Below, in pieces: positions 3,801 through 64,000 of a DNA stretch of 64,000 nucleotides (its first letter is position 1; the number at the start of each line of letters is the position of its first letter). The position numbers and the translations under genes were made by a program. The notes below the pieces were generated by a model. The model was not told where the DNA came from and did no database searches. It worked only from the letters and a program-made list of their open reading frames with translations. The DNA comes from Xylographa opegraphella (taxonomy: Eukaryota): positions 124,001 to 188,000 of the forward strand of contig JALDZX010000022.1 in the NCBI GenBank assembly GCA_022813865.1, in the 5' to 3' direction.

Positions 3801-4486
3801 TCATTGTGGAGGTCGGCTCCTTATCGGAAGGTTGGTGATGGTGAAGGGGCTCACTGCTCCAGGTGCGGTCTGGTCTTCTTCCTCGTCGTACTTATCGTCC
3901 TCGGCCTCCTCCTCCTCCTCCTCGTCTGCCTCCTCCTCCATCACATCGGGCCCAGCGGCGTCCCCCGTCTCCTCACCCTCCACCATTGTTGATGGCCCGG
4001 CACCTTCGCCAAACATATCCGTCCACAACGCCAGCGTCTCTGTTGCTGCTGCTGCCTCGGCCGTCAGCTTCCTATCCTCTTCCACCATCTCGGGCTCGGT
4101 CAAAAAGCGCCATGGTCCCTCATCGTCAAGGGCCAGGCCCCCCCGCGTAGCGGCGTCATTGCGTGCCTGCTGCTTGTCTTTGGTATAACGGGCACGTATG
4201 CCCTTGGCGGTCGCCTTTGAAATCTTGCCCTCTTGGGCGAGCTTTGTAGCAAGGTTGTTGTTATGGACGCGAGCGCCCTTCAGCTGCTGGTTGATTCCAC
4301 GGTGCATCGCTGTATGTATCGCAGCTTCAAATAGAATATAGATTAGCGAACAGGTATAAAATGCACTGTTCGAGGGCCTCAGTATCACATACCCACGGGC
4401 TTGTCAAGACGACCTTGTCTGTCTCGAGCGGCCTTACGCTCTGAACGGCCGCTCTGCCCGGCGTGGTTCTTCTTTGCAATACCCAT
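3801..4486 (-). CDS. Hypothetical protein, basic N-terminus and acidic (poly-E) C-terminus
   Basis: ATG at 4486 (MGIAKKNH...). Intron 4325-4392 (GTATGT...GCTAAT...AAG) joins it in frame to ORF 3801-4388. No recognised domain. Confidence 0.6.
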
Positions 4487-6085: not shown

Positions 6086-8762
6086 ATGGCTTTACGCCGG
6101 TTTTTCTTAACTATCTTGTTGCTTTCAGCGCTTCTCTCGTTATCTAATGCAGCAAGCAGCACCACCTCAACCGACTCCTCACTCCCTACTATCACCTCCA
6201 CTCAAGTCGCAGCCTTTAATTTTCCACTAACAGAAGCCAATGCCGTCTGCTGGTACCCACTTTCTGTAGGTAATGGTTCACCGTCTGAAGTATAGCAAAA
6301 ACTGACCTCTGTAGGGAAATTATGGTCGCCTACCTCGCATTCTCTTCTACATAACCCTTCTGTTCGCGCTATTGGCGCGCACTCATCAATGGTTAATAGC
6401 TGGCGCCCTCGCCGCGGCTCTGACTTATTCTGGGACGGCTGCCATCCACGCCTGCTTGTTGATCTGGCGAGGGCCCACCAATGGAGAAACGGATTTTCTG
6501 GCCTTGTTGGCAATCTTGAGCACCTCCTGTATCCTCACGGTTCCCTTGATCAATTGGTCGAGTACACTGCGCACACTGGGTGCGAAAGGAGATAAATATG
6601 ATTCTGCCAGTCGCACAATCATCATTTACTGGGGCTTCCTGATAACCGTTGGATTCTTGTGCTGTTTCGTCGCCTTATGGGACAGTCAAATCAACATGCC
6701 GCTTTACAACTTCAGTGCTATCGATGAAGTCACTTGCGTCCCACCTGGCGGGAAGATGAATTATACTGTTGGACAAAATCCACAATGGAGCGTCCTCGTA
6801 GTTGATGCAGAGTTCGTCGAGACTAACAATTGCCTCAATCCATGTGGTGGCGCTCAGATCGACCCCTACAAATACCTCCCAATTCCAGGGGGAGCGGCAA
6901 TCTTCCGTAATATGGACGACTCCCAGGTTCTCACAATGGCGGAAATTAACTACCTGGCGGATGTTGGTATTAGCAAGAGCCAATCTCGGAACTTACACTT
7001 TGTTGTTTTCTACATACGATGGGGCTTGCTAGTTCTTCCGTACATCTTAGTACAGGGTATCTATGCAGCCTTATTTGGACGGAAGGCGCCACGAGAAGTA
7101 CGAGACATGCTCTATTTTTACTTCAAAGACCGCCAAATTCCTTACTTCACTTCGGCCTGGTTGAAACAGCGCAACGTTGGTTCTTATATCCGTGCTAAAC
7201 GCATTCAAAGATGGCTCTCCCAATGCTTCTGTCTAACAATGTACCTTTGGGCTATTTTCGTAACTGTCCTGTGTGCTCCACTGCTTGTGGCTAATCTCGT
7301 GGCTTCGGAGATAGCTCTGGATCATGTTGCGCAAAGTGAGTCAGCAATTCACGTTGGAGCATGGGCGCCGTGGGCCGCCGCGGGTCTCGTCATCTTTGCG
7401 GCAGGAGTTGCACGATTTCAAACTGCGCTCGTAATCAGTGCGGATGAGATGTTCAAGGAGCTTGTTGCACGGACTGGCCACGCTTTCCGGGTGTCCAAGC
7501 GTCGTTTGAGAGCATCGCGCTGCGAACCTCATATGGATTCCGAAAAAGGTAGCAGACCAGGATTGAAAGACTCTCGCAGTCATTCTGCAGCTCCGTTCCC
7601 ACAAATCGTCAGAAAGACCGGCTCATCCGCTTTCGAGACCCTTGGTGGACCACTCAACCGACTAAGAGATCGGATGAATATCAGTTTCAACATCGTCGAA
7701 AAGGAGTGGTTCTGTTTTTGGCAGTTCTGCAAAAATCCGGATGAAATGGGGGACTTCAACCCGCACTGGCGCACTGATAATTATAAGGTATGGAAGGAAC
7801 GGCATCCGAGTCACAAGGATGTACTTGAACGTGGCACAGCAACCATTTCTCAAGAAAGCTCTTCTAACAGCAAAGACAACTTCCACCCAGCGAGGAGCTC
7901 TGCTGAAGGCCACATTGCAAGCTCGATAGTGCCGCGGCAACCTCCACCTACGCGAGATCGGCCCAACTCTTCGAGCGCTGCATACATGGGGCATCAGCCC
8001 GTCCTGCCGTTGACGAATCGCACTTTTAGCGACCATCACGACACCGACATTACCGCTCACACACAAAGCCCCCGCCAAAATCTACCATCCAAGCACCTCT
8101 CCCTCGAAAAGGAGCTCCCCACCCTTCCACCCCCAACCCCCAACACCCGCTCCCCCGCAGCGACTCTCAAACGCCCCACCACCGCGCCAGACAACGAAGA
8201 AGCCCACCACCTCCTCAGCTACTCCACCCAAGACTACGAGCTGCACCCGACCCCTCCCACCACCAACCTCAAAAATTCCCTCCACGACTCCATGACGTCC
8301 CGCAAACGCCGCTCCGAAGCCTACAGCCCCACCGCCGAGCTCCCTGCGCACTCGGCCCATCCCGCTCCCACCCCGCAAGCCGCGCCCACCTCCCTGCCCG
8401 CACGAACACCCTACGAGCCTCACGCGCCCTCGCCGCTCTTCTCCGAGCCGGAGATGCAGCACCTGCTGTCCGGCTCGCAAGGCCCCTCTAGTCCCTCGCA
8501 GCCGGCACCCGGGCTCAGAGGCTTCTCGGCGCTTCCGGTGCACGCCTCGTCGCCGCTGCTGCCCGGCCGCGCGTCCACGGTCTCGTACCTGCAGGTGCAG
8601 CGGCCGTCGACGCGCCTCTTCGCGGACGAGATCCGTCTGCGCAAGGACGAGTATGGGACGTATCACCTAGTGGAGGACGGGGAGGAGGAGGAGGAGGCGC
8701 GCAGACGGGCGCAGCAGCCGGTGCGGAGGATGAGCCGGTATAGTGGGGACGCGGGCGACTGA
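6086..8762 (+). CDS. Multi-pass fungal membrane protein with signal peptide and long disordered Pro/Ser-rich C-tail
   Basis: Signal peptide MALRRFFLTILLLSALLSLSNA. Intron 6266-6314 gives VCWYPLSGNYGRLPRILFY...WLIAGALAAALTYSGTAAIHA, followed by several further hydrophobic helices. Confidence 0.8.
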
Positions 8763-9762
8763 GCCTGTCTATTTGGTGCGAGTGGGTCGTTGTGCGTTGA
8801 ATTGGGATGTGGAATTGGGAGGCTGGCCTGTCTGGCGTAGCGCAACGGTGCGGCTGGCCCGGTGGGCGCGGGTGTGGTGTCCAAGGCCCGGCAACGCGGC
8901 ATGCGAGCGATAGGTAGTCCTCTCGCCCCAGCACCACCGCACTCAATAGATACCAACCAGTTGACGCCTCGCGCGCACCATTGCAGGCCGGCCTCCCATG
9001 ACAGCCCCTGAACGCCCCCTCTCGTCCCATTTCGCTCCCTCTTCCCTGGCCGCTAAGACCGCCCGCCCTCCCCTAGCCAACTACCCCCCCGCCCGTCTCC
9101 GCCACTGTAGCTCTCTGGGTGAAAGGTGGGACCGACACCGGAGCGCACTTGGGCGGATGGGCGGAGTGGAGTGGTGACGGAGTGAATGGTTGTGGGTTTG
9201 GAGGGGTATTTGTTACGGGTTTAGGTGGTAGGTGCAGAGGGATGTTGAGGGGGGAGAGGGGATGGTACGCGGTGCAGGGCGGGGCGGGAAGCGGGCGAGG
9301 GGGTGGAGAGCTCCAGGGGGGGTGGGCTTGGAATTGCGAGCGTAGGTGGTATGGAAGCGGGGGGGAATCCCGGGTTCGGTTCCGGATAATGCTACGATGG
9401 GGAAAAGGCTTGTCATGGAGTGTGATTTAATTACAATGACTTTCACGCATGGTGGTGGTCAAGGCGGAGGGGCACGGTTCGGGAACGGATGATATGTACT
9501 CCGTATGATGCGTAAAAAGTGTTTTAAAAAAGGAACAGCTGAGGAGATGCGTCCTGTTCCGCTCTATGGTATCCCCCATAACCCCCTCTGTCTCAGGGTG
9601 TTTGTACTCACACAACTCGCTCCTGGGCAGAGCTGGCGGCCTCCCAAGGAATATGGTGTAATAAATAGTTTAGCTAGATGGTCCCAGCGATCGCCTCCAC
9701 ATTATGCAAGCTAGGGAAGAGGAGAAATCATCGTTACGATAAGGATAATTATAGAGAGGTTT

Positions 9763-23691: not shown

Positions 23692-25046
23692 ATGGCCGAA
23701 GGTTCTACTGTTCTGCTAGATCCCTTGCTCATCCTTCGGAGCTCGATCGCGTCGAATAACCCTCCGGTCCCTACAACCTCTCCTGATGCATCGGCAGGGA
23801 ACGCAACCGACAATCTTGCTCTTGCAACTCATCTCCACTTCAGCTCACCAAGCCATCAGACATACGAATTAGCAGCCCCTACCCGCTTCGTATCCTCCTC
23901 CACGCCCGTAGACCTACGGAGCATCTACTTCGCCTGGCAGAAGAAAGATGTTGCTATCCCCGACTACATCGCCTCGGCGCAACAACTCAACGAGGAGCTC
24001 GCAGCGCCTGGTGGAGCGGGGGGAAGGGTCCAAAATCTGGTTTTTGTGGAGAGGTTGGACTTGATCACATGGCTCGAAGGCGCGAGCGACGAAAGCGAGT
24101 ACATCACTCCACTGGAGGGGGATGAGGGCAGAGCAGCGGCGGCGGGGGCTGCCTTGGTGGCATCCGGCGCTGCAGGCGGAGCAGCGGCCGTCGCAAGTGC
24201 TGGTGGGAGGACGGGAAAGACGATCGATCCGCGTTTACAGGAGATCTATAATGGCGAGCGAAGGATGGGGGATCGCAACACGGTGCTGCGAGGAATCAAA
24301 CCCACAGTACGCGTACCCGTTAATGCCATATCAAGCGGGGAGGACAGCTCACTCTAACACGAACCTCTTAGGATTTCTCCCACGTCCGCAAATCCGCCGA
24401 AGCTTTCCTGGGCCGCACGCGCGCCCGTCCTTCCGCACCCACTGCTGCAGCCGGCACCTCCCTCCGCCCCACATCCTCCACGCCCTCCATCCCGCCGTCG
24501 ATCCCCTCCCACCCGAAGAAACCGTCCCGGCGTCCGGACCCGATCATCCTGCTCTCCCCCTCGGCGTCCTCCCTGCTGCGGATGTCGAACATCAAGCCCT
24601 TTCTCGAGTCCGGCAGCTACCAGCCGCCCGCCCCGACCTCGACGACGACCATCCTGCACATCTCGCGCCTCCTGCCCAGCATCGACGCCACGCGCCCGCT
24701 GCGCTTCATCCTCGTCGACTCGCCCGACCAGTTCAAGCCCGACTACTGGGACCGCGTCGTCGCCGTCTTCACCACCGGCCAGACGTGGCAGTTCAAGAGC
24801 TACAAGTGGAGCAGCCCCGCCGACCTCTTCGGCCGCGTCCTCGGCGTCTACCTCGGCTGGCGCGGCGAGGAGGTCCCGGACTCCGTCCGCGGCTGGGGCA
24901 GGGGCGTCGTCAACGTCGGTGTCGATAAGTGGATCGAGGGCCGGAAGGGCGAGGGCCGCTGGCGCGATCGCGAGGTCGTCGAGACCGTTTGGGGCCAGAT
25001 CGAGGGCTGGATGAAGGGGAGGGGATGGGGCGCTAATACGGGGTGA
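23692..25046 (+). CDS. cdc73: Paf1 complex subunit Cdc73
   Basis: FVERLDLITWLEG, DRNTVLRGIKPTDF (across intron 24307-24371), DPIILLSPSASSLLRMSNIK and DYWDRVVAVFTTGQTWQFKSYKW. Confidence 0.95.
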
Positions 25047-57800: not shown

Positions 57801-58702
57801 CTCCAACCTCGTTTCTACAATCTCCAGCATCTGTTCCTCCTATGCCACGGAAATCACTTGATGTACTCCGGGGATCAAGTGCTAGAAGGTCGATGGACAA
57901 TACTCGGCCATCAATGGAGCAGGGATTCATGGCTGACGATGTAGACCTTGGAAGAGGTAGCCAATGGTGGTTGCAGCGGAAGATGCCTCCTCCCGTATTT
58001 CAAAATCGAATGGATATAAGCTTTGAAATGGAAGAAGCTAATGTCACACAACAAAGTGGTGGTCAATCTACGATCAAGCACGTGTATGTGCTCTTTATGG
58101 ATTATTCTCAAACGGTAATCACCGCTCGATACGATGCAAAAGATCCCTCGAAGGTGGAATTTCAGCAACGCCATGAGCCGCCTCCACTGGGCCTTCGGCA
58201 AGATCAGCTTGAGGGGGCTCACACTAAGTTCGGTGCCCGCATGGCGGAGATGGCTACCACAAAATTGAACCATACAGTCGGCGATGGCACTCCGTTTGCG
58301 CTTGTAATAGAGCTTATAAGCGCGTTCCCAGCCGCTTTACCTTCGGTCGGGACGCGCGCTTATGGCGCCCTTGTTTACACTAACCTTGCTAACGCATCAG
58401 TCTCCCAGCATGACGAGATACGTCCTGGCGATATCGTGTCGTTCCGGAATGCGAGACTTCAAGGGCATCGTGGGCCAATGAAGCAAAAGTATAACGTCGA
58501 GGTTGGTAAGCCAGACCATGTCGCAATAGTGGTTGACTGGGATGGCACGAAGAAGAAGGTCCGGGCCTGGGAGCAAGGTCGGGAGAGCAAGAAGGTGAAG
58601 ATCGAAAGTTTCAAGCTCGGCGATCTACGTAGTGGTGAAGTGAAGGTGTGGCGAGTCATGGCACGGGAATGGGTTGGCTGGGGAGGCGGAGGACATAGCT
58701 GA
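54839..58702 (+). CDS. bbc1: SH3-domain myosin-tail-interacting protein Bbc1/Mti1
   Basis: N-terminal SH3 (VKAVYDYSSPHDDDLSF...WYYG...GLFPKNFV); SFRDRIAAFN, TSLKERIALLQ and RERMAKMSGGMGM; Pro-rich middle; C-terminal domain ending DLRSGEVKVWRV. Introns 56631-56680 and 56777-56834. Confidence 0.9.
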
Positions 58703-59353
58703 ATGGAAGTCGACGATTCATTATATTTATGGGTATGCTTGTATCAATCATCGTGGAAGAGCACTGTGAAGCTTCTGTCTGCGTTATCAATACCTCATTT
58801 CATAATTGCTCGAACTACCGATTTGCAGTGATGGTTGCGCGGCCACCTCCTCGTTAACGAGTTCTCATGCACCGTGGCTATTATTTCCTAATGCAGCCGT
58901 TACCAATACGGTTCCCCAGCCGCCCTTGAGTCCGGAACCTTCTTCACAAAGATGGTTCATAGCCCCGTTTGATTCACCTCTCACGATTATCGACAGAGCT
59001 CACCGCGGCCACTACTTCTTCTCTCCTCCCGCTCTTCTTCTTCCTCACTCCTTCCTCATCACCTCCTCCCACTTTTCTCACTCTCAGCCCCTTCCTTTTC
59101 TTCGTCTGCGCTCTCCGATATCTCTCCCGGCGTGGGAGAATACACCCAAACGCGGCCAAAGCAAACCGCAAAGAGCTCTCGTCCCTCTGGGGATTACTCT
59201 TCCCTGGTGGAGGTGTGTCACTCACACACCTCCACCATCAACATATTGTGAAGAGGTGTTCTTCGGCGTGCACGGTAAGACTGCTGCGTAACAAATTCGC
59301 TGCCTCCGACGATTAATCCTTGACAAGATCGTGCAGCCATCACCATGACAAAT

Positions 59354-59795
59354 CTGGCGACTGCCAGTCTTCACCTCTTCTGGGGCACTGGGGAAGCTCA
59401 TCGGCTTCCTTCCCAAATCTCTTCCCCAGTGCCCCACCCCAAACAATCTGGGGTTCGCAAAACAACACCTCTTCTGGGGCACTGGGGAAGGTGATCATCC
59501 TTCCCCAAGATCACCTCCCCAATGCCTTATCATAAACAAACCTGGCGACTGCCATTGTTTATCTCCTCTGGGGCACTGGGGAAGTTGATCGGCATCCTAC
59601 CCATATCCCTTTCCAGTACTCCTCCGTGCTCGCCCCCGACATCTGGGGTGGCCAAACAACACCTCTTCTGGAGCACTGGGGAAGGTGATCGTCCTTCCCC
59701 AGGATCACTTCCCCTTTCTCCCACGACCAACGACTGGCGACTGCCAGTCTTCACCTCCTCCTGCGGTATCCTCGTTTCCATACCGCAGGAGGAGG
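59354..59795. repeat. Degenerate tandem repeat, ~190-bp unit (2 copies plus a partial third), with internal CTCTTCTGGGGCACTGGGGAAG sub-repeats and hairpins
   Basis: CTGGCGACTGCCA starts at 59354, ~59541 and 59734; downstream blocks align by eye. Confidence 0.85.
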
Positions 59796-59830
59796 ACGAA
59801 TCCCCATCGGTGTTGTGTTGGCGCAAAGGC

Positions 59831-61760
59831 GTAAGTGCATCACTATACCCTGTGCCAGTGCGAGTTTGGCCGCGAAAAAAGAGAGCTGACCAAGCGATAG
59901 GCCGAACAACAAACAAACTCGCTTTCCCGGCTACACAGCCGGCGAACTCACCTCCTCCAGCGGAATCCTCGTTTCCATACCGTTCCCTCAGGAGAAGGGT
60001 TCTCCGCCCTCCTGAGGGGCTTTAACGAGCAATTTCTGGGGTACTGGGGACATGCCTCCGCCCATACCGAGATCTCTTCCCCAGTACCCCAGAAATAGGT
60101 GATCGGTGCCAGCAATGCTGACACCTTCAACGGCCATATGTATACATATGAAGAACCGGGCCTCCAGTGATCGTAGTAAGTACATAAGTATAGAACTCCT
60201 GCAGCGCGCTTGCACGGAGGTGTGAGTGCAAAGCCATACCTTGTAGATGTCGTGTCTGGAGAATGAGCATAGCTGACCGTGGGTAGACATCGGAGCACTC
60301 CTCCTCCTCCTCCTCCTCCTCCTCCTCCTCCTCCTGCGGAGCGTTCCTTGCTTCCTCGGGGGGGTTGGGGCAATCCCCCCTTTATGGGGAGTCTGGGTCA
60401 TTCTTGGGACCCCGGGGAAACTCCGGGCCCTGGTTAGTAGGTGTCCGACCATACACAGTGTGAGTTTGCAAAGAGCTGAGTAGTCCATAGACCACACAAC
60501 GAATAAGGCTCTACACTCGTCCGAGCTATTTTTCTCGTCCGCAGGAGGAGGGAATCTTTCCCCTCTGTGAAAAGCAGTGACAGTGAGTACCCACCTAGAC
60601 ACGGTAGCAGTCTGGAGTATAAAAAGAGCTGACCACAGTATATGTAGACTTTCCCACAAAATACTTTCTTCTTCTTCCTCTTCTTCTTCTTCTTCTTTCT
60701 CTTCCTCTTCCTCGTCCTCGTCCTCGCCCTCTCTTCTTCTTTCTCCATCTTTTACTCTTTCCCTTCTCCTCCTGCGGAGCTCTTTTTTCACTCCGCAGAA
60801 GGAGAAAAATCTTCCCTGAAATACTGGGAGGATTTTCTCGGGCATTCGTCAGTAAATACTCGCCAGACGCAACGCGAGTCTGACAAAGAGCTGACCAATC
60901 CATAAGCTTCATGACAAATGAAATTTTCTCCTCCTCCTGCGGAACTCTTTTTTCCCTCCTCAGGAGGAGCAAATAGATTTTTCCTCAACGGAGAAATCCT
61001 CCCTGGGTCACTGGGAGGATTCTCCAGGCCCTCATGCGTAAGTGTTCGCTTACATGCAATGCAAAGTGGAAACGGCTGACTGGTTCATAGGTTTCACAAC
61101 CAATAAACTCTGCTCCTTCTCCTGTGGAACTCTTTTCCTCTCCGCAGGAGGAGGAAACAGATTTTTCTTCAAGGGAGAAATCCTTCCCGGGTCACAGGGA
61201 GGACTCTCCAGGCCCTCGTTAATAAGTATCTTCTCACACGCACTGCGAGTCTGGAAAGGGCTGACTGGTGCTTAGGCTTTACAACTAACAAACTCTGCTC
61301 CTCCTCCTGCGGAACTCTTTTCCCCTCCGCAGGAAGGGGGGAGTTGTGTTACTGGTTTGACCAGACGTAAGCGCCTACCCTGCGAATCCAGGAGACAGAA
61401 AGAGCTGACTTGGTGATAGACAACAAAAGCTTCCATTTCCTCTCCCTGGGGGACTCCCAATCCCTTCCAGGGAGAGGGGGTGGAACTGTTGGATCGCGTG
61501 AATGACAGACGTAAGGGCCTACCACATCCATTTTGGAACTCGGGAATCTAGAAGATAGAACTGACTGGGTGATAGACAATAAAAGCTTCCAATCCTTCTC
61601 TCTCTGCGGGGCATACGATCCCCTCCGTAGGGAAAGGGAATACTTTGGTCCGTGGGACGGTGTACTTGGGAGAGTTATCGGGATAACAGGGAATATCAAC
61701 GGACTTGGTTCCTGCCCCCTGCGGAAGACAAGACTTTGCCCGCAGGGGGCGGGGGATATC
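59831..61760 (+). repeat. Degenerate tandem array of intron-like unit + hairpin-containing exon-like unit (~150-270 bp period)
   Basis: Repeated GTRAGT...GAGCTGAC...TAG blocks, most followed by CTCCTCCTGCGGA...TCCGCAGGAGGAG-type inverted repeats. Confidence 0.8.
60298..60335. repeat. (CCT)n microsatellite, about 12 units
   Basis: Seen directly; it extends the CTCCTCCTGCGGA arm of the array unit. Confidence 0.95.
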
Positions 61761-62204
61761 GAGAGCAAATTGAAGCCTTTCAAGGTAATTTCGAAGATCT
61801 GGGTAGTCTGTGGGAATCTTTGGGGCCAGGGGAGATGGTTGGATCGATATCTGCGCCGGCAGAAGCAGAGATAGAACGGGATCCATCTCTTTTGCAGGGG
61901 CAGAATTCAGGCAATGATGGAACTACACCATCACAGAGGAGCCACCTCTCATGGATCACTTAGTCGTATATGCCATAACAGGAACCCCGGAGCATGGAGC
62001 GGTTCTCAGCGCACTAAATGGCACGGCGTTCTTGTTGTGAAGTAGATATTTCTCACCTAGGTTCTTCTTCTCTTCTTCTACTCCTCTTCCTCAGCAACCA
62101 TTCGTATGTTCCATATCTTGCAGAAAACCAGACAATCAGACATGCAATCACTGGCTTTGGTATATCATAGCTGGTGACCAAACATCATACAATCATTGGC
62201 TCTC

Positions 62205-63320
62205 GTACTTTCAATCACCCCCTTTGACCAGTCTTGACTGATCGTAACGAACCTGAGATCTTACATTCAAAATAACACAAAGATTTGAGCTCATGCACAT
62301 TACCTATCAAGTACCGACAGCTTTGCATACTTAGAGAAGTGTTCATACTGACAGGCATCACCTTCCGTACTGTATCAGCTCGTTCAACCAGTGGTGACGA
62401 ACCTGAGATCCTGCATCCAAACCAACACCAAGTACTCAGGTCTCGCTCATCATCTTGCAAGTGCGGACAGCATTGCATACCTAGGGACCGTTCATAACTA
62501 CAGGCATCAGCTTTCGTACTTGCAGAACCTCCTTCGACCAGTCGTGACACACCTGAGATCGTGTGATCAAATATACACATTCAGTAACTGGTTTCTGTGC
62601 AACATCCTGATATTGACTGTATTGCATACTTTGTGTGGCTGTCGATCACCTACCAGCATCAGCTCTTGCACTCCCAGTCACACCTTTCGACCAGGCATAA
62701 CGCATCGAAGATCGTGCATTCAACCAGAAGTATTCAGCATTTAGCTTTCGTACATCATCCTCAGGGACCGACAGCATTGCATACTTCTTTCAACAGTCGA
62801 TCATACCTACCTACGTTAGCTCTCATACACTTACGTCTTTCAACAGTCGATCATACCTACCTACATTAGCTCTCATACACTCAGCTGCCCCTTTCGATCA
62901 GTCATAACATATCTGTCATCCTGCATCAACCAGATACAGAACCTGCTTCCACACGTTATCTTCCTGTACTAGCTTTATTGCTGGTCACGTCTACCAGTCG
63001 AACATACCTTCGAACATTGACTCTTGTGCTTTCAGTCACGTCCTTCGACACTGCATCACACATACAGCATTCAGCATTGGAAGAACATCTTCAGGTACCA
63101 AGCGTATTGCGTATCACGTCTAGCAATCAACCATACCTACAATTATTAGCTTCTGTGCTTTCAACCACTTCCTTTTGAGAAGTAACACACCTTGAATCCT
63201 GCGTTCAACCACATTTACAGCATTCAGCTGTTGGACATTATCTTCCGGTACCAACTGTATTGCACACAGTATTAGGAATCAACCATACCTACAAGCATTA
63301 GCTATCGTGCTTCAACTCAC
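62205..63320. repeat. Degenerate tandem repeat, ~150-bp period, about 7 copies, containing a near-perfect 50-bp-period duplication (62786-62881)
   Basis: ACCTGAGATC at 62251, 62401 and 62551; TTGCATAC at 62323, 62473, 62622 and 62777; CTAC...ATYAGC blocks recur to ~63300. Confidence 0.85.
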
Positions 63321-63537
63321 CTCCAGCATCCATCTGCACCATACATTACGACTTGCAGACCAGCATACACTTCATTGTTAGCACCCTAGCTTGTCTTCTG
63401 GAACAACTCGTACTTACCTCAAGTTCTTGAACTATCTGCTCACTCAGGCTCTCGTATTTCAACAAGAAAATTAATTCGTCAGTGATACCTTTTTATACAT
63501 AAATATATATGAAGCCAAACTAACACGTCTTCGTAAG

Positions 63538-64000
63538 ACAACACCGTTCACTTTACCACAATGGCACGCCACAAGTACAACGGGGTGCGCGACTCGGTCT
63601 TGGGAATCAAGATCAAGACCGGGTTGCAGCCCCGCCCAGCGGCGGACGCCTCGGATGCAGAGTGGGGGTACTATGAATTGGAGGTGAGTATCAAAGACAA
63701 CCAAAGCATTGGCACAGTTGCTGATTATTCAAAGCGGAAGCGCCATGAGGCAAGATTGGTAAGTTCTTATTGGATAGAATTCAATCCGATATGGACAGAT
63801 ATCAGAGATCACGTGTGTGCTAACTTAACAACAGGCGCGGGAGGAGAAGGAGGAGAAGGAATGGGAGAGGAAGCGGCTGGCGAACGAGAAGGCCTCAGCG
63901 GCCAAGACGGACGACAAGGAGAAGAGGAAGCGGCGTCGCCCCTGGTATGCTTGAAAATTCAACATTTGGGAATAAGATCGCTAACATGTTCGCAGCTTCG
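63538..64000 (+). CDS. Partial spliced gene encoding a charged, coiled-coil-like protein; runs off the window, start unresolved
   Basis: Canonical introns ~63683-63734, ~63759-63835 and ~63945-63995. One frame reads DAEWGYYELE|RKRHEARL|AREEKEEKEWERKRLANEK; a second frame from ATG 63561 is also open. Confidence 0.4.

Follow-up and report, generated by a model that had tools for sequence, protein, structure and literature searches.

Repeated hairpins joined by linkers serve as multivalent binding modules in the Xist A-repeat and the roX stem-loops. Host genes of small nucleolar RNAs (snoRNAs) and polycistronic microRNA (miRNA) clusters are multi-exon RNA polymerase II units that lack an open reading frame (ORF) and carry many similar structured modules. 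The tandem-duplication model of intron gain is a further related precedent for the array described here, in which short intron-like units alternate with GC-rich stem-loops. This array spans 2.6 kb at ~59.2-61.8 kb and makes up 4% of a 64,000-nt stretch of Xylographa opegraphella DNA (assembly GCA_022813865.1, contig JALDZX010000022.1, positions 124,001 to 188,000, forward strand; hereafter the window, numbered from its first letter). Judging from its sequence, we tentatively read it as a lineage-specific multi-exon structured long non-coding RNA (lncRNA) gene, built up as a module of linker, hairpin and intron was duplicated in tandem. Like snoRNA and miRNA host genes as generally known, the array is ORF-less and holds many structured modules, its RNA polymerase II origin being a prediction. 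Unlike in snoRNA hosts, where the structured RNAs are intronic, structures are exonic here and the introns are too short (53-70 nt) to hold such RNAs. Only Rfam snoRNA matches with E ≥ 1.2, on the wrong strand, were found in the region, and matches to Rfam miRNA families were far below threshold. The Xist A-repeat and roX share no sequence relation with the array, and their repeats, as commonly described, are not interleaved with introns.

Duplicated introns offer further points of comparison. Collemare et al. (PMC3609843) describe an 'SGD' class of same-gene duplicated introns generated by segmental or tandem duplication, as well as introner-like elements of about twice the regular intron length with stable structures and compensatory mutations. 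The array resembles SGD introns in that homologous introns were multiplied in one locus together with their flanks and later diverged (eight of nine units, 184-nt period), but differs in having nine copies without an ORF and co-duplicated 'exons' that are stem-loops and not coding sequence. With fungal introner-like elements, again as portrayed there, it shares canonical splice signals (a strict pattern in 6 of 9 units) and stable, compensated structure in repeated copies. In contrast to these elements, however, the copies are tandem, diverged and found nowhere else in the window, the units do not reach introner length at 53-70 nt, and it is the inter-unit segments, not the short introns, that hold the hairpins. 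In a literature search that returned mostly listings and abstracts, no description of such an intron-plus-hairpin array was found.

A last comparison concerns a single donor site. According to Kannan et al. (2015, PMC4299874), an AUA(A/C)GU 5' splice site in Aspergillus telomerase RNA allows the spliceosome only its first step and generates the 3' end of the RNA. The unit at 61222 is similar to that site in that its donor reads ATAAGT while its branch site and acceptor are intact, but the array has neither a template nor an Sm-like site next to this donor, and only one of nine units is concerned. The ATAAGT donor is most simply a mutation. With a motif derived from general knowledge of TTAGGG telomeres, no AACCCTAAC-like template site (at most one mismatch) was found in 58.7-63.5 kb, and elsewhere in the window 4 such sites occur compared with 9.5 expected by chance.

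Intron-like units and their splice signals

Splice signals and hairpin pairing are the best-kept features of the array. An initial annotation of this DNA had listed nine intron-like units and a further intron upstream, and the starts, ends and lengths given there all match the sequence, as does the mutated donor reported at 61222. All ten lie on the + strand and measure 53-70 nt, compared with ~48-89 nt for the likely real introns of the window as judged by a rough heuristic:

59275..59336, + strand: first intron-like unit, GTAAGA...CAG, 62 nt, unrelated in sequence to the other units
59831..59900, + strand: intron module I2, GTAAGT...GCTGAC...TAG, 70 nt
60222..60286, + strand: intron module I3, GTGAGT...GCTGAC...TAG, 65 nt; homology to the others not demonstrated
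60433..60490, + strand: intron module I4, GTTAGT...GCTGAG...TAG, 58 nt; branch site weakened
60583..60647, + strand: intron module I5, GTGAGT...GCTGAC...TAG, 65 nt
60852..60906, + strand: intron module I6, GTAAAT...GCTGAC...AAG, 55 nt; donor and acceptor weakened
61038..61090, + strand: intron module I7, GTAAGT...GCTGAC...TAG, 53 nt
61222..61275, + strand: intron module I8, ATAAGT donor with intact GCTGAC branch site and TAG acceptor, 54 nt
61367..61419, + strand: intron module I9, GTAAGC...GCTGAC...TAG, 53 nt
61511..61575, + strand: intron module I10, GTAAGG...ACTGAC...TAG, 65 nt

Among the nine units I2 to I10, the donors GTAAGT and GTGAGT each occur twice, with GTAAGC, GTAAGG, GTAAAT, GTTAGT and ATAAGT found once each. 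The branch site is GCTGAC in seven units, ACTGAC in one and GCTGAG in one, and eight acceptors are YAG while the ninth is AAG. A strict donor-branch-acceptor pattern yielded 9 matches on the + strand of the 64-kb window, 6 of them within 59.2-61.8 kb, and none on the - strand. When each unit was left out in turn and searched for with an nhmmer profile of the others, eight of nine were recovered (E 1.8e-11 to 1e-4). The profile missed unit 60222, so its homology is argued from shared motifs only. The mutual homology proposed in the initial annotation thus holds for eight units and not for this one. Run over the window, a profile built from the units matched the nine units only. The ACAACAAA-like exon starts noted earlier are clear in about six of nine cases.

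Conservation among the units is concentrated in their splice signals. The 15 splice-signal columns of the nine-unit alignment have a mean pairwise identity of 0.84, compared with 0.53 for the 38 other intron columns and 0.39 for 25 flanking exon columns, and only 1 in 100,000 random column sets reached 0.84. Three elements do not vary at all in this alignment: the CTGA of the branch site, the T at donor position 2 and the first two letters, TA, of the TAG acceptor.

Hairpin families and their pairing

The segments between the intron-like units carry about 20 stem-loops. Perfect palindromes, defined by a stem of at least 10 bp and a loop of 4-40, are concentrated here, with 9 of the 11 found in the window falling within the array. 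Likewise, when ~1,280 windows of 100 nt were ranked by GC-corrected stability, 17 of the top 30 fell within it. Of 16 exon segments, 11 have a folding z of -2.6 or lower, and for 9 none of 200 shuffles matched the observed stability. At least four sequence-unrelated hairpin families occur together: A, B, C and small ones. The A family has a CTGCGG/CCGCAG core with one homopyrimidine and one homopurine arm and is present in 8 copies and in one further pair of arms split by intron 60433. The B family has 3 copies, and the small CTGGCGACTGCCAG hairpins are separate from it. The C family, with TGGGGCACTGGGGAAG arms, has 5 copies, 4 of them in intron-less 94-nt units at 59345-59730. Besides its ACAAAYCTGG linker, each of these C1-C4 units has two hairpins, a small CTGGCGACTGCCAG one and a long TGGGGCACTGGGGAAG/CTTCCCCAGTGCCCCA one; unit C3 is decayed. 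The stem length of ~20 bp or more that Dicer products call for is approached in C5, with a perfect 19 bp, in A6, with 22 pairs, and in C2, with 20 pairs interrupted by bulges, so that about 3 of the ~20 stems reach at least 19 bp. The hairpins and associated repeats are:

59205..59237, + strand: upstream perfect hairpin, 14-bp stem, 5-nt loop (inverted repeat I23)
59345..59730, + strand: four intron-less 94-nt units C1-C4 (direct repeats D6, D7, D9; z -5.9, -4.0, -0.6 and -1.9)
59754..59795, + strand: hairpin A1, 16-bp perfect stem with CTGCGG/CCGCAG core
59984..60096, + strand: hairpin P (59984-60019) and hairpin C5 (60032-60096, 19-bp perfect stem)
60298..60335, + strand: (CTC)12.7 microsatellite leading into a lone 5' arm at 60327-60340 (Tandem Repeats Finder, TRF; inverted repeats I24, I25)
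60764..60839, + strand: hairpins A2 (60764-60806) and B1 (60802-60839)
60931..61025, + strand: hairpins A3 (60931-60969) and B2 (60990-61025) in a 131-nt exon
61114..61209, + strand: hairpins A4 (61114-61155) and B3 (61174-61209) in a 131-nt exon
61297..61344, + strand: hairpin A5
61428..61487, + strand: hairpin A6, 22 pairs, stem sequence altered to CTCTCCCTGG/CCAGGGAGAG
61593..61755, + strand: hairpins A7 (61593-61639) and A8 (61709-61755, stem GCCCCCTGCGG/CCGCAGGGGGC)

Pairing is maintained across the A family. After realignment of the 8 copies with a covariance model (13 pairs, 104 cells), 92.3% of cells were paired compared with 54-71% in slid registers. Four of the 13 pairs are altered on both sides, accounting for 7 cells, and none of 500 shuffles reached the observed paired percentage, number of double-changed cells or covariation score. 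In A6 and A8 the stem sequence has changed while pairing is still perfect over at least 11 bp.

Two further observations concern the A-type arms. The lone 5' arm at 60327-60340 and the lone 3' arm at 60538-60551 are complementary at 14 of 14 positions across ~200 nt, and the loop of the resulting hairpin would hold intron 60433-60490. Further, every A-type hairpin has, across its loop and the start of its 3' arm, a pyrimidine tract that leads into (C/T)AG|G and strongly resembles an acceptor (59770-59790, 60780-60800, 60945-60965, 61128-61148, 61313-61333, 61450-61471, 61612-61631 and 61728-61746). This buried signal lies 50-70 nt downstream of the branch site of each module and may provide a second choice of 3' splice site that is masked by structure.

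Duplication history and coding potential

The copies record their own amplification. TRF reports a period of 184 with 2.2 copies and 82% matches at 60928-61334. Aligned over whole units, the youngest pair (U5/U6) is 78% identical and older pairs are ~60% identical. The array is therefore old and has been extended again and again by tandem duplication of its linker-hairpin-intron module, which is in agreement with the amplification of an intron-plus-hairpin unit suggested in the initial annotation. Copies of the unit are absent from the other 61 kb of the window, as judged by motif, profile and blastn searches, the sole blastn match of the region outside itself being a CCT repeat at 3898-3939. 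Hallmarks of a transposon or miniature inverted-repeat transposable element (MITE) were likewise not seen: 58.8-62.2 kb lacks a long-range terminal inverted repeat, a transposase domain is missing, and no dispersed copy lies within the window. The possibility, raised earlier, that the unit is a transposon subterminal repeat thus found no support in the window. A second, unrelated and degenerate tandem array follows at 62188-63330, with a ~150-nt unit in 7-8 copies of 65-85% identity and a 50-nt duplication at 62782-62881. It is preceded by a CT-rich tract at 62060-62095, contains no inverted repeats and has no similarity to the first array. Inside the first array, two microsatellites were observed, one pure, (CTC)12.7 at 60298-60335, and one impure, (TTC)/(CTCGTC) at 60666-60731; the CCT repeat at 3.9 kb is of a similar kind.

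The sequence is non-coding, as had been proposed. Exon lengths of 131, 131, 91 and 91 nt, alongside unit lengths of 184, 144 and 156 nt, are not multiples of three, so that the frame shifts at every unit. With all introns removed, the longest ORF starting with ATG has 168 codons. The ATG at 59345 opens 49 codons as noted in the initial annotation, and the stops in all three frames mentioned there have closed every frame by ~60100. Codon-usage scores of the longest ORFs range from -0.02 to 0.02, compared with a mean of 0.136 and a 5th percentile of 0.029 for coding windows. A few short ORFs of 76-114 codons score 0.05-0.10, in the lower coding range, and cross microsatellite and hairpin sequence.

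No convincing homologue was found in database searches. Pfam searches of 9 translations gave matches above cut-off for the neighbouring genes only, and one minus-strand ORF had a sub-threshold match to Importin_rep_6 (16.9 bits compared with a cut-off of 23.9). A word-based search limited to proteins of near-equal length returned no match for the ORFs at 59495-60022 (+) and 59991-60845 (-), and exact look-ups of 4 ORFs in the protein collection found none. For the ORF at 61352-61906 (-), an exhaustive search of representative proteins returned P0121 as the sole match, a 1,318-aa protein of near-identical ~60-aa repeats. This candidate was rejected, as the match is a single 27-bit, 31%-identical stretch recounted for each repeat of the subject. 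At gathering score, Rfam gave no match in the whole window; at E ≤ 10, 14 weak matches were obtained in the array region, the best with E 0.07 and all far below gathering scores. A scan for transfer and transfer-messenger RNAs found no genes in the window.

Candidate transcript, rival explanations and setting

Upstream of the array lies a tract that was found in the sequence just as the initial annotation had described it:

59020..59110, + strand: CT-rich tract (sequence; direct-repeat family D2)

CT boxes occur in fungal promoters, and we infer that this tract may be promoter-like for a filamentous fungus. The locus arose as a module made up of an A/C-rich linker, one or two GC-rich stem-loops and one short, canonical intron underwent tandem (segmental) duplication time after time. 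Under the lncRNA reading, transcription of the + strand would start just past the CT-rich tract, near 59.1 kb, and the spliceosome would take out up to ten introns of 53-70 nt. The predicted product is a ~2.2-kb RNA consisting of a chain of ~20 perfect or near-perfect stem-loops with unstructured linkers and no usable ORF. In the manner of a multivalent lncRNA, its helices may offer many copies of a docking or processing site to a structure-specific factor that binds double-stranded RNA or stem-loops, while the consensus introns would secure expression and processing. The strand assignment is predicted from intron orientation only; in folding, the two strands are equals. The initial annotation had considered both a structured lncRNA and a small-RNA precursor. 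The latter version is weakened because only ~3 of the ~20 stems reach at least 19 bp, and no known family is resembled; a multivalent stem-loop scaffold is therefore favoured.

Several observations weigh against such a transcript. Five of the 16 exon segments show no excess structure, and at segments 59536, 60287, 60491 and 61576 (z -0.7 to +1.0) the hairpins are decayed. Three of nine units have weakened signals, namely 60433 (GTTAGT/GCTGAG), 60852 (GTAAAT/AAG) and 61222 (ATAAGT). Over 20 hairpins the two strands give -506 and -509 kcal/mol with 22 and 23 G.U pairs, and because both strands fold equally well, the palindromes need not act as + strand RNA and could matter as DNA. In the A-family test, two of the five measures are unremarkable, as 69 of 500 shuffles matched the number of pairs altered on both sides and 286 of 500 that of further pair types; moreover, the covariation comes from an alignment fitted to the model and from copies that are paralogues. 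When arms were swapped between hairpins, 7.05 of 9 positions paired compared with 7.75 of 9 for own arms, a value reached by 149 of 20,000 permutations, although this control is weak because the arms are homopyrimidine and homopurine. Template switching during replication can make and repair perfect hairpins without selection. Finally, the hairpin-free array downstream suggests that the region may simply be duplication-prone.

The main rival is an inert, decaying minisatellite, an explanation that we take seriously but consider less likely. Here, a fragment holding one intron and the palindromic sequence beside it would have been amplified by unequal crossing-over or slippage in an intergenic region prone to duplication, and it would be transcribed only incidentally or not at all, with signals and stems persisting through the youth of the copies or through renewal of palindromes by template switching, not through selection. 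The damaged signals in 3 of 9 units, the 5 of 16 segments without detectable structure, the lack of strand bias in G.U pairs and the almost equal pairing of swapped arms are in line with this, as are the unrelated ~150-nt-unit array at 62.19-63.33 kb, the two microsatellites and the lack of a homologue or known family in Rfam and protein searches. However, the units are only 60-78% identical and yet their signal columns stand out at 1 in 100,000, the A6 and A8 stems have changed in sequence but stay perfect over at least 11 bp, and several unrelated hairpin families are gathered in one locus. That the locus is a cluster, or the source, of mobile introns of an introner-like or MITE-like kind seems improbable. 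Each module would then be a degenerate copy of an element with splice signals of its own and a stable hairpin, and more copies would sit as introns in genes elsewhere in the genome. Canonical donors, branch sites and acceptors next to stable structure with compensatory changes would fit such an element, and if the distal pyrimidine tract and CAG|G inside the A hairpins served as acceptor, introns of ~104-120 nt including the hairpin would result (assigned by eye). Yet the first AG past each branch site gives a 53-70-nt intron that leaves the hairpin outside, the modules are not bounded by terminal inverted repeats and come with no transposase, and the copies are diverged rather than near-identical, while motif, profile and blastn searches of the remaining 61 kb gave none.

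Two more accounts are minor. If the palindromes acted as double-stranded or cruciform DNA, for example as a dense cluster of sites for dimeric transcription factors, an enhancer or a fragile site, the introns would be incidental. The equal folding of both strands is consistent with such a DNA-level element, and candidate motifs are enriched in 59200-61800 compared with the rest of the window (CGG-N14-16-CCG, 4.6 vs 1.3 per kb; SYGGRG of the CreA/Mig1 type, 14.6 vs 4.8 per kb). This enrichment is probably a by-product of G-run-rich stems, however. The dyad spacing varies (14-16), the stems outrun any core motif and differ in sequence between families, and the one-stranded, conserved splice signals are left unexplained. 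We consider this account very unlikely. A decayed repeat-protein gene with exons out of frame, the alternative named in the initial annotation, can be all but set aside. Exon-intron periodicity is present, and the two youngest, neighbouring units share an open 24-codon frame, but counted by eye this frame shows 2 synonymous and 7 non-synonymous differences. Neither the unit and exon lengths given above nor the non-coding codon usage supports such a gene; two ORFs lack a word-based protein match, no Pfam match exceeds threshold, and the sole match of the exhaustive search, at 27 bits, is repeated over near-identical repeats of its subject.

A bolder version of the lncRNA reading would see the array as a selected, new type of fungal non-coding RNA gene in which short consensus introns are interleaved with perfect stem-loops and splicing is coupled to hairpin folding or processing. 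Such an array would be a natural counterpart of intron-spliced hairpin RNAs, and its ATAAGT donor at 61222 might then be a first-step-only cleavage site yielding a non-polyadenylated 3' end. We regard this as a long shot. To our knowledge, first-step-only spliceosomal cleavage is documented so far only for telomerase RNA. If the array is transcribed and spliced, it would be a case of intron number growing by tandem duplication outside coding constraint and a rare fungal lncRNA in which evolution keeps splice signals and helices rather than sequence. It would also offer a natural test bed for the interplay of splicing and RNA structure, possibly including spliceosomal 3'-end cleavage beyond telomerase RNA. 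If silent, it would be no more than an unusual minisatellite, though a useful warning that junk DNA can retain signals resembling introns and hairpins.

The array sits in a 4.8-kb ORF-poor gap flanked by a Bbc1/AIM3-type SH3 gene that ends at 58702 and by a + strand gene that starts near 63561, and no ORF within this gap has a Pfam match above cut-off. The DNA is nuclear and belongs to a filamentous ascomycete. A scan for bacterial promoters and terminators is uninformative for fungal DNA. Compared with bacterial and archaeal contigs only, the C-terminal domain of Bbc1 gave 62 pattern matches, none of them confirmed. Xylographa is a genus of lichen-forming Lecanoromycetes, and the Mrp51 gene of the window (mitochondrial ribosome) has its best named relatives in this genus, being 83% identical to that of X. 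pallens and 72-80% identical to those of four further species. Elsewhere in the window, two 1-kb blocks at 8001-9000 and 24001-25000 have an unusually high G+C content of 0.66 compared with ~0.50 in the remainder.

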